DNA from: a virus
Taxonomy: Duplodnaviria; Heunggongvirae; Uroviricota; Caudoviricetes
Length of the DNA stretch: 11,709 nucleotides
IMG/VR virus record: IMGVR_UViG_2548876944_000019
Coordinates: 1 to 11,709 of that record
Direction: 5' to 3' (one strand)
The notes under the pieces were generated by a model that saw only the letters and a program-made list of their open reading frames with translations, did no database searches and was not told the origin of the DNA. The stretch's first letter is position 1; the number at the start of each line of letters is the position of its first letter. Positions 401 through 3,987 of this stretch are shown here, piece after piece. Position numbers and translations under genes: made by a program.

Positions 401-441
401 ACTAATTAATATATTGTCAGACTCACAATATATTAATTAGT
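401..441. promoter_or_regulatory. Perfect 16-bp inverted repeat with 9-bp spacer, candidate operator
   Basis: ACTAATTAATATATTG (401-416), spacer TCAGACTCA (417-425), CAATATATTAATTAGT (426-441); the arms are exact reverse complements. It lies in the AT-rich intergenic region about 130 bp upstream of the 281-aa ORF. It is too AT-rich to be a stable terminator stem. Confidence 0.5.
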
Positions 442-3315: not shown

Positions 3316-3987
3316 TTATTTCCCTATGGCTATCCAGGCAATTTCTGCTCCTGGAGTGCTCCAGTTGGCAATTCGGATTGTTGAAAGATCAGCTGACGAC
3401 ACGCCAACTGGTTTTGAAGGTGAGGGATCTGAACCCCAGAACGAAGCAAGAACAATATAGCCTGAGGTAGTAAAAGGGATTGGCAGCGTCCTTACCGCAA
3501 TCTGTCCTGCCGCCATGGTTGTCCTCCCGCTCTGAATAATTGTCCCGTCTGGAAACTTTACCCACCCACTACCACTGGTCCATGCAGACATGTCTGGTAG
3601 TTGGTTAGCACCTGTTCCGACATCTCGTTTCGCCGCTTCGCCCAAACCAAGATTTGAGAGGGCCGTTTTCACCGTGCCATCCGATTTGATATCACCAAAC
3701 GGATTCTTGCGGCTCAGGTATTCAACAGCAAACCCCGATCCCAGCAATTCAACAAAACCGGGCAGATCACCATTATCAAGCACATCCCGTTGCGTTTTGT
3801 CACTTACAAACTGGGCCAGAGCTGCAGCAATAAAGCTGGCCTGCCGAATAACCTTATTGACTTGCGCACTGGATGCTTTCCCTGCTGTAAATCCGGATAA
3901 AAGCGCAGGCAACGCTTCCCATTCCTCCTGCGACATAACATTGGCATTTTTACCCGTTGCGAATGCTTTAAAGTCATTTTTTGCCAT
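3316..3987 (-). CDS. Tail-fibre protein (constant N-terminal part fused to the currently oriented variable C-terminal part)
   Basis: The ATG at 3987-3985 overlaps the TGA of the upstream gene (ATGA), so it is preferred over the in-frame ATG at 4005 given in the ORF track. The right crossover site lies in frame inside it (ALSNLGLGE). It is followed by a Tfa gene. Confidence 0.8.
3637..3662. other. Right inversion crossover site (inverted relative to the left site), core AA at 3649-3650
   Basis: TTCGCCCAAACC AA GATTTGAGAGGG. Its reverse complement matches the left site at 13 of 14 positions across core plus inner half (TTGGTTTGGG[C/A]GAA). It lies inside the tail-fibre gene at the constant/variable junction. 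Confidence 0.6.

Follow-up and report, generated by a model that had tools for sequence, protein, structure and literature searches.

The locus analysed here raises a simple question: does the long perfect palindrome that lies upstream of a probable toxin-like defence gene control that gene, or is it a by-product of the way this DNA was assembled? The window (the whole stretch of DNA analysed, 11,709 nucleotides) covers one end of a myovirus-type prophage of E. coli that is inserted in the 5' part of yfhL, beside yfhH. In order, it carries an 88-aa gene, a dinI remnant, the palindrome, an orphan stretch of about 120 nt, the 281-aa cargo gene, a truncated invertase gene, and tail-fibre and baseplate genes. 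The features on which the argument depends are the following.

1-267, + strand: 88-aa phage gene (phrog_17793, by a PHROGs match) at the prophage end
290-409, + strand: dinI-like pseudogene remnant, 3' half, frameshifted and unannotated; its nucleotide identity to annotated DinI-like genes, of which more than 1000 align, is ~74-77%
325-351, no strand assigned: left arm of an outer degenerate inverted repeat, within the dinI remnant, pairing with 489-515 at 22/27 positions
401-441, no strand assigned: AT-rich palindrome with perfect 17-bp arms (401-417 and 425-441) and a 7-nt spacer (418-424, CAGACTC)
410-528, no strand assigned: lineage-specific DNA from the dinI end to the conserved cargo leader, with no match outside the same locus
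489-515, no strand assigned: right arm of the outer degenerate inverted repeat, pairing with 325-351 and overlapping the candidate cargo promoter
491-518, + strand: best candidate sigma-70 cargo promoter, TCAACA-16 nt-TATATT, 9/12 in a consensus scan
529-568, + strand: conserved cargo-family leader, recognized as upstream DNA common to homologues and including the ribosome-binding site AAAGGAAAA (553-561)
569-1414, + strand: cargo gene, 281 aa, of an orphan all-alpha HEPN-like family found in defence/cargo hotspots of many Proteobacteria
1473-1733, - strand: truncated Pin/Gin-type DNA invertase with its N-terminal catalytic domain left (Pfam Resolvase, 2.3e-30)

The original prediction described the palindrome as ACTAATTAATATATTG-N9-CAATATATTAATTAGT at 401-441. 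These sequences are present, and the perfect arms prove to be 17 bp rather than 16, with a spacer of 7 nt: the left arm (401-417) is ACTAATTAATATATTGT and the right arm (425-441) is ACAATATATTAATTAGT. When one mismatch is allowed, the same 401-441 stretch can be read as 20-nt arms separated by a 1-nt gap. The dyad is the longest perfect inverted repeat of the 11.7-kb window and also of the whole 42.7-kb phage record ON470579, which contains the same locus. For comparison, 200 sequences of 11.7 kb were simulated with a first-order Markov model of whole-window or AT-rich composition; with a spacer of at most 20 nt, their longest perfect inverted repeats had arms of 7-12 bp, compared with the 17 bp observed. 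The 17-bp dyad is thus far beyond chance. As single-stranded DNA it is predicted to form a hairpin with a free energy of -12.1 kcal/mol (z = -6.7 relative to shuffles). Only two of the 17 stem pairs are G-C; GC content from about 400 to 1450 is 30-39%, compared with ~50% elsewhere in the window. An intrinsic (Rho-independent) terminator was considered and rejected, given the two G-C pairs in 17, the lack of a T run on either strand and a negative terminator scan.

The left edge of the palindrome can be traced to an older gene. The dinI copy in the window has lost its 5' half and is frameshifted; aligned to the intact dinI of locus L003 it matches from mid-gene to the stop codon with a score of 95, where shuffles average 17.6. 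Its reading frame ends in ESVDGWFDHTN followed by the stop, where the intact protein ends in ESADEWFVH, and at the DNA level the dinI allele of this locus ends in GGCTGGTTTGATCATACTAATTAA. The stop codon TAA (407-409) falls inside the left arm, the outer 9 nt of which (401-409, ACTAATTAA) are this stop codon and the two codons before it, collinear with dinI-like 3' ends. Matches to dinI span E. coli chromosomes, phages and plasmids, and essentially all of the alignments end at 409-411. Because dinI homology ends within the left arm, the dyad straddles a recombination junction; the closest intact dinI is only ~77% identical, and the true junction could fall anywhere from 410 to ~528. A search of genome_contigs (one genome per species) for a closer allele, using an 18-mer from dinI, returned one irrelevant E. 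coli locus and chance matches.

Intact loci indicate what the arrangement looks like when it is unbroken. L003 carries an integrase gene, dinI, 143 nt with a GC-rich terminator, a full-length invertase gene and tail-fibre genes. After the dinI stop, both L003 and L055 have a canonical GC-rich, T-tailed terminator ~70 nt downstream, and the AT-rich dyad is absent. In the window, the DNA from 410 to 528 matches only the same locus when E. coli genomes, phages, plasmids, and viral and metagenome contigs are searched, and it is not common to the homologous cargo loci. Judged by sequence comparison, the whole segment from 410 to ~1472 appears to be foreign to the dinI-invertase module. The match to intact pinE starts at 1473, which is the right junction of the cargo segment, and RefSeq annotates the invertase as partial, with its C-terminus missing.

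The segment occupies a position that is variable among related prophages. In sister prophages with different cargo, homology to the window stops at 282/283, and the slot between the 88-aa gene and the invertase is filled by an acyltransferase gene in SEN34, while H10407 and Rb-50 both have a 215-aa gene there; the other slot occupants have no comparable dyad. A slot with exchangeable cargo is likewise seen in prophage "moron"/defence hotspots (the P2 gpA-portal region and lambdoid tail-fibre-proximal morons), a comparison that covers the surroundings of the dyad and not the palindrome itself. Homologues of the 88-aa protein occur only in Salmonella, Citrobacter and Escherichia prophages. In strain 357900 this gene carries an IS3 insertion, which was considered as possibly aimed at the dyad; it lies at ~207/208, inside the 88-aa gene, and was not so aimed.

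The reading that we favour, with slightly less than even confidence, is that the dyad is a structural palindrome made at this recombination junction, and not an imported or conserved regulatory site. Two properties of a palindrome produced by templated copying are found here: one arm is pre-existing local sequence, in that 401-409 is collinear with the dinI 3' end, and the palindrome coincides with a homology breakpoint, with the dinI match ending at 409-411 and apparently foreign DNA following to 1472.

A repeated mobile element would place the same dyad at many sites. The dyad with its flanks is present in 44 of 5426 complete E. coli genomes, once in each and always at the same locus. The exact 41-mer has no match in genome_contigs, and a relaxed dyad pattern finds five viral and four metagenome contigs, all representing the same locus at 95-99% identity. 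A 50-nt query over the left arm, run against the E. coli genomes with E values of up to 10, recovers only the same 44 genomes. A single 17-nt arm does occur in 19 other viral contigs, and these matches are attributed to chance since their contexts are unrelated and their genomes have 24-42% GC. It had been proposed that the genome and related prophages be searched for the same dyad, which might turn out to be a widespread repeat-element terminus; the outcome is a single-copy sequence at one locus. The dyad is single-copy and lineage-specific, and so does not represent the end of a mobile element that occurs repeatedly. The suggestion that it marks the end of an inserted element therefore holds in part: dinI homology does stop at 409-411 and 410 to ~1472 is apparently foreign, but the end is not that of a repeated element.

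A more specific version of this idea has the cargo delivered by a mobile element, with the dyad as the terminus or recognition hairpin: the end of an IS200/IS605-type element or of a miniature inverted-repeat element, an integron attC site or an invertase crossover site. The dyad does lie at the left boundary of the foreign segment, and a serine invertase gene and a gix/pix-like pair (1791-1814 and 3636-3659) are nearby. However, it is single-copy in every collection searched, no matching structure is found at the right boundary (1415-1472), the window has no transposase or integron integrase, and the cargo family moves without conserved flanks. The hix/gix consensus is 26 bp long, with two 12-bp half-sites and a 2-bp core, and the attC consensus is GTTRRRY; the dyad fits neither. 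A serine-invertase crossover site (hix, gix or pix) was rejected in particular, since the dyad is unlike the gix/pix-like pair and the 352-488 segment is inverted in none of the 44 genomes. We regard delivery by a mobile element as extremely improbable, and this reading is already largely refuted.

If the dyad belonged to the cargo gene, it would be expected to accompany that gene elsewhere. Several hundred homologues of the cargo, with 56-74% identity, are scattered among Enterobacter, Citrobacter, Serratia, Klebsiella, Pectobacterium, Vibrio, Marinobacter, Motiliproteus and other hosts. Their contexts include an integrase island, downstream of the type I restriction-modification genes hsdS and hsdR; P2-like prophages, between gpA and the portal gene and beside a PvuII restriction-modification system; a position after an Ogr/Delta gene; and a position between a gene for an SRAP-domain (PF02586) protein and umuDC-like genes. 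The protein belongs to no family in Pfam, PADLOC, PHROGs or NCBIfam, a Foldseek search of the PDB gave no match, and a literature search on its accessions found nothing. Its fold is all-alpha and HEPN-like, with no DNA-binding domain detected, and it has been likened here to HEPN toxins and abortive-infection proteins; the cargo is a probable defence gene of a toxin-like kind.

Comparison with these homologues also delimits the gene. They confirm the GTG start at 569 and its ribosome-binding site AAAGGAAAA, which puts the dyad 127 nt (442-568) before the start codon, in agreement with the ~130 bp first estimated. Nucleotide homology among cargo loci begins ~40-57 nt before the GTG (177 nt in one Citrobacter/Klebsiella pair) and ends at the stop codon, and the leader at 529-568 is the only upstream DNA in common with the Enterobacter, Serratia, Klebsiella, Citrobacter and Motiliproteus homologues. 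Ten homologous cargo loci, drawn from six other contexts, all lack the dyad in their upstream DNA. Within 300 nt upstream of these ten loci, the sole perfect inverted repeat of at least 9 bp is an unrelated one of 13 bp, ~230 nt upstream of the Motiliproteus gene. The dyad is thus not a property of the gene family.

A control site is expected to bear some relation to a promoter. The best candidate sigma-70 promoter for the cargo gene (491-518) lies just upstream of the conserved leader and has a predicted transcription start near 525, which places the dyad centre (421) ~100 nt upstream of the start, a distance that depends on predictions only. The TTGACT hexamer at 464-469 had been reported as unpaired, and this is borne out: the hexamer is present and no -10 hexamer lies at a usable spacing. 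The dyad itself contains the hexamers TTAATA-17 nt-TATATT on both strands, at 406-434 (+) and 436-408 (-), each scoring 9/12; they mirror each other because the dyad is an AT-rich palindrome.

These hexamers suggest that the dyad could be a weak bidirectional promoter or an H-NS-type silencing nucleation site, roles that are typical of AT-rich horizontally acquired DNA, and the region has a GC content of 30-35%, relative to ~50% in the phage genes around it. Rightward transcription from such a promoter would give the cargo mRNA a leader of ~127 nt. However, promoter-like sites in 1.8 kb number 9 compared with 5.4 +/- 2.4 in shuffles, an excess that is not significant; the equal-scoring site at 491-518 is nearer to the gene; and perfect 34-bp symmetry is needed for neither activity. 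We therefore consider a promoter or nucleation role unlikely.

Selection on a binding site is expected to leave its arms less variable than the surrounding DNA. Nineteen copies were aligned over 1.7 kb, the compared copies being 1-5% diverged. Variable sites make up 1 of 34 arm positions and 14 of 260 positions in flanking non-coding DNA (Fisher p = 0.38), compared with 3 of 7 in the spacer (p = 0.006 relative to the flanks). The one variable arm site, G416A in strain 357900, breaks a base pair and is uncompensated. Among the 44 genomes, spacer alleles as read from identity classes are CAGACTC (20), CAAACTC (21) and AAGATTC (3). The hypermutable centre is the sole significant signal of variation, as is expected of an exposed loop in an extruding hairpin. 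The arms show no detectable extra constraint relative to the flanks in what is a low-power test; with copies only 1-5% diverged, the failure to detect purifying selection on 34 positions is weak evidence against function.

The original prediction noted that such dyads are typical operators for dimeric repressors, and several observations make such a site attractive. The symmetry is far beyond chance; the dyad occupies the sole non-coding gap of notable size before the cargo gene; with 127 nt between it and a probable toxin-like defence gene, a perfect 17-bp dyad is reasonably placed for regulation; HEPN-toxin or abortive-infection-like proteins are a class usually needing tight control; and a free spacer between nearly constant arms is what would be seen if only the arms were contacted. 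The dyad could thus be an operator, or a more distal site, for a dimeric or tetrameric regulator encoded by the host or another prophage, which would silence the HEPN-like cargo until a signal arrives.

The remaining evidence points the other way. No regulator gene is adjacent, and neither the cargo protein nor the 88-aa protein has a detected DNA-binding domain; the latter also has no Pfam family, and its structural model (pLDDT 58) is too poor for fold comparison. When the 42.7-kb phage record is searched for the 14-nt half-site with up to two mismatches, no further copy appears; nor does the cro/cI intergenic region resemble the dyad. Together these two results count against an operator of the phage immunity repressor, which was rejected. 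The dyad is missing from all ten of the other cargo-family loci compared, its left arm is partly dinI coding sequence, its arms are no more conserved than the flanks and include one uncompensated variant, and its centre, ~100 nt upstream of the best promoter candidate, does not overlap that promoter (a weak test, since it involves predictions only).

The geometry is also unusual. Dimeric helix-turn-helix proteins read far less than 17 perfectly symmetric bp per arm, and the arms here, 17 bp long with their centres 24 bp apart, do not match the layout that an ordinary helix-turn-helix dimer recognizes. Like the lac, trp, LexA and lambdoid CI/Cro operators, the dyad is symmetric and lies upstream of a gene plausibly needing repression. 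Its arms are, however, about twice as long as the half-sites of those operators and perfectly symmetric, and it differs from them in being unrepeated, in having neither a nearby cognate regulator nor promoter overlap, and in not being conserved with its family. The operator interpretation thus gains no positive support from the ten homologous loci, the half-site search or arm conservation, and we consider it rather unlikely.

The symmetry does not end at the perfect arms. The outer degenerate repeat (325-351 and 489-515) is nearly concentric with the dyad, offset by 2 nt, and none of 2000 shuffles scores as high; between the inner and outer arms, the two sides are weakly similar (p ~0.03). The left outer arm is genuine coding sequence of dinI. 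When compared by hand, the reverse complement of the right outer arm matches the dinI allele of its own locus at 22/27 positions and the L003 allele at 16/27, and this closer match to its own allele suggests copying within the locus. The symmetry is therefore a mosaic, with a perfect centre, a weakly similar middle and outer arms that match at 81%, which a single fold-back followed by neutral decay would not yield. A second, inverted dinI remnant to the right of the dyad was also sought and rejected; only the 10-mer CACTAATTAA aligns, with a score within the shuffle range.

Extended symmetry of this kind could also reflect a structured transcript. Polymorphisms in the outer arms are not compensatory, which makes a conserved RNA helix unlikely. 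A scan against Rfam 15 gave only spurious matches to microRNA hairpins (19-22 bits, relative to thresholds of 80-135). A functional RNA structure over 325-515 is rejected for now on these two grounds, the uncompensated polymorphisms and the absence of an Rfam match.

A smaller RNA hairpin, formed by the dyad in a transcript reading through from the 88-aa gene, could act in RNase III-type processing, as a 3'-end stabilizer or as an insulator that keeps upstream transcription apart from the cargo gene. The 88-aa gene, dinI remnant and cargo gene are on the same strand, the predicted fold holds an 18-bp stem, the 300-570 region folds better than shuffles (z = -2.9), and the canonical dinI terminator of intact loci is absent here. 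On the other hand, there is no U-tract on either strand, so the hairpin is not an intrinsic terminator; no Rfam family matches; the outer helix is not kept by compensatory changes; and typical RNase III substrates have a longer stem. We consider an RNA hairpin with such a role quite improbable.

Returning to a palindrome made at the junction, the favoured reading, the following history would account for the locus. A dinI-terminator-pin invertase module in the prophage would have been broken right after the dinI stop codon and within the invertase gene, so that ~1.06 kb of AT-rich, apparently foreign DNA (410-1472) with the HEPN-like cargo now lies between the two breaks. The left arm would be ancestral, made up of the end of the dinI coding sequence, its stop codon and a few bases beyond, and the right arm would be an inverted copy of the left, produced by templated synthesis. 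The copying may have been primed by snap-back of a broken end, or a polymerase may have switched templates between AT-rich inverted repeats of short length; in E. coli, both processes are known to make inverted repeats perfect and to lengthen them. Since then the palindrome would have been carried passively with the cargo, its exposed centre probably mutating faster than its arms. Any present effects, such as a hairpin or cruciform, a weak mirror-image promoter or the binding of nucleoid proteins to AT-rich DNA, would be incidental.

A single-arm ancestor, in which the dinI allele of this locus is followed by TATATTGT and the right arm is missing, was found in none of the E. coli genomes, viral contigs or genome_contigs searched, where the closest dinI is ~77% identical. 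The direction of copying is thus something that we infer rather than observe, and the palindrome could instead stem from an unsampled donor. The position of the junction, the single-copy state of the dyad, its independence of the cargo family and the absence of extra arm conservation are observed; how the copying took place, and that the dyad has no dedicated function, is likewise what we infer.

Junctions with similar properties are known from other rearrangements. Tandem inversion duplications in Salmonella reportedly have palindromic junctions formed by snap-back or fold-back synthesis. Like those junctions, the dyad appears as an inverted copy beside a breakpoint with a short non-symmetric centre, and its degenerate symmetry extends ~95 nt further on each side. 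It differs in lacking a large duplicated segment, in having its centre kept and not deleted, and in its mosaic symmetry.

Template switching offers a second comparison. Perfect inverted repeats are over-represented in E. coli, and a model in which template switching corrects them has been put forward (PMC5941160); the same species provides documented cases of quasi-palindrome template-switch mutagenesis (PMC7202029), and inverted-repeat arms are homogenized by template switching (PMC8604942). Snap-back priming and template switching, both documented in E. coli, have been proposed as the cause of both the excess and the persistence of perfect inverted repeats in Proteobacteria (PMC5941160, PMC7202029, PMC8604942). 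Like the repeats considered in those studies (PMC5941160, PMC7202029, PMC8604942), the dyad is a non-coding perfect repeat of a length far beyond chance, has one arm traceable to older sequence, combines homogeneous arms with differing spacers, and has no evident dedicated protein partner. Its 17-bp arms exceed the great majority of the repeats surveyed there, which average 5.75 bp and are all under 20 bp. It differs in lying exactly on a gene-truncating recombination junction, and no intermediate imperfect state was observed here. The palindrome belongs to a known kind of object, the long perfect inverted repeats of rearrangement junctions, here within a prophage cargo slot, although this particular instance is undescribed and is restricted to one prophage lineage.

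The dyad would matter more if it controlled the cargo gene. In the strongest form of that idea, which we judge very improbable, it is a true control element of a new single-gene anti-phage system with a HEPN fold. Upon infection, a change in supercoiling, the presence of single-stranded DNA or a factor from phage or host would then switch a cruciform, hairpin or operator and release expression of the toxin-like cargo, and the perfect symmetry would be held by function and not by history.

If read as the scar of a junction, the dyad helps to retrace how this slot was rebuilt, with the dinI-invertase module broken, an AT-rich HEPN-like cargo inserted and the tail-fibre invertase inactivated. It also shows clearly, in a natural setting, a perfect inverted repeat of great length with one arm traceable to older coding sequence, and as such it bears on models of how template switching creates symmetric sites. 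More interesting than the dyad itself, however, are the widespread and unannotated 281-aa HEPN-like family that occupies defence hotspots and the exchange of cargo in this prophage slot.

The slot that separates the 88-aa phage gene from the invertase is a hotspot of cargo exchange. The 88-aa gene is common to sister prophages integrated at this yfhL site, and homology breaks at window position 282/283. A different 215-aa gene, accompanied by an intact pinE, is found in E. coli H10407 and Rb-50, while an acyltransferase occupies the corresponding position in Salmonella phage SEN34. The 88-aa protein is in some cases annotated at 113–145 aa, extended at its N-terminus; the window opens exactly at the ATG of this gene, so any such extension would lie outside it.

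Features of the window in and around the cargo slot
290–409, + strand: dinI-like pseudogene remnant (3' half, frameshifted), unannotated
325–351 and 489–515: outer inverted repeat, degenerate, its arms matching at 22 of 27 positions
1435–1450: GC hairpin GGGGGAGAAATCCCCC, 20 nt past the cargo stop codon, without a T tract
1473–1733, − strand: truncated Pin/Gin-type invertase, N-terminal catalytic domain alone kept
1791–1814 and 3636–3659: gix/pix-like inverted pair of 24 nt, 83% complementary

The dinI-like remnant shares about 75–77% identity with DinI-like genes that are intact in other E. coli prophages, and its stop codon lies within the left arm of the palindrome (401–417). The outer inverted repeat is nearly concentric with this central dyad (401–441) and is significant when compared with shuffled sequences, and compensatory changes do not maintain it. 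The symmetry around the dyad has a mosaic pattern. Within the dyad, the spacer (418–424) is hypervariable, with three alleles and variation at 3 of its 7 sites among copies that are otherwise 95–99% identical, a pattern that fits an exposed hairpin loop.

Insertion sequences have struck this prophage end, in strains 357900 and CAU16175. In E. coli 357900, an IS3 element interrupts the 88-aa gene at about window position 207/208, and G416A, the sole variant in the arms, occurs in this same strain. CAU16175 has an IS421 behind the cargo gene and a rearranged upstream region. The GC hairpin downstream of the cargo gene sits in lineage-specific DNA (1415–1472).

Despite truncation of the invertase, the tail-fibre segment is still flanked by the gix/pix-like pair. 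The host-range switch is probably frozen in this prophage, barring in-trans action of the invertase of another prophage.
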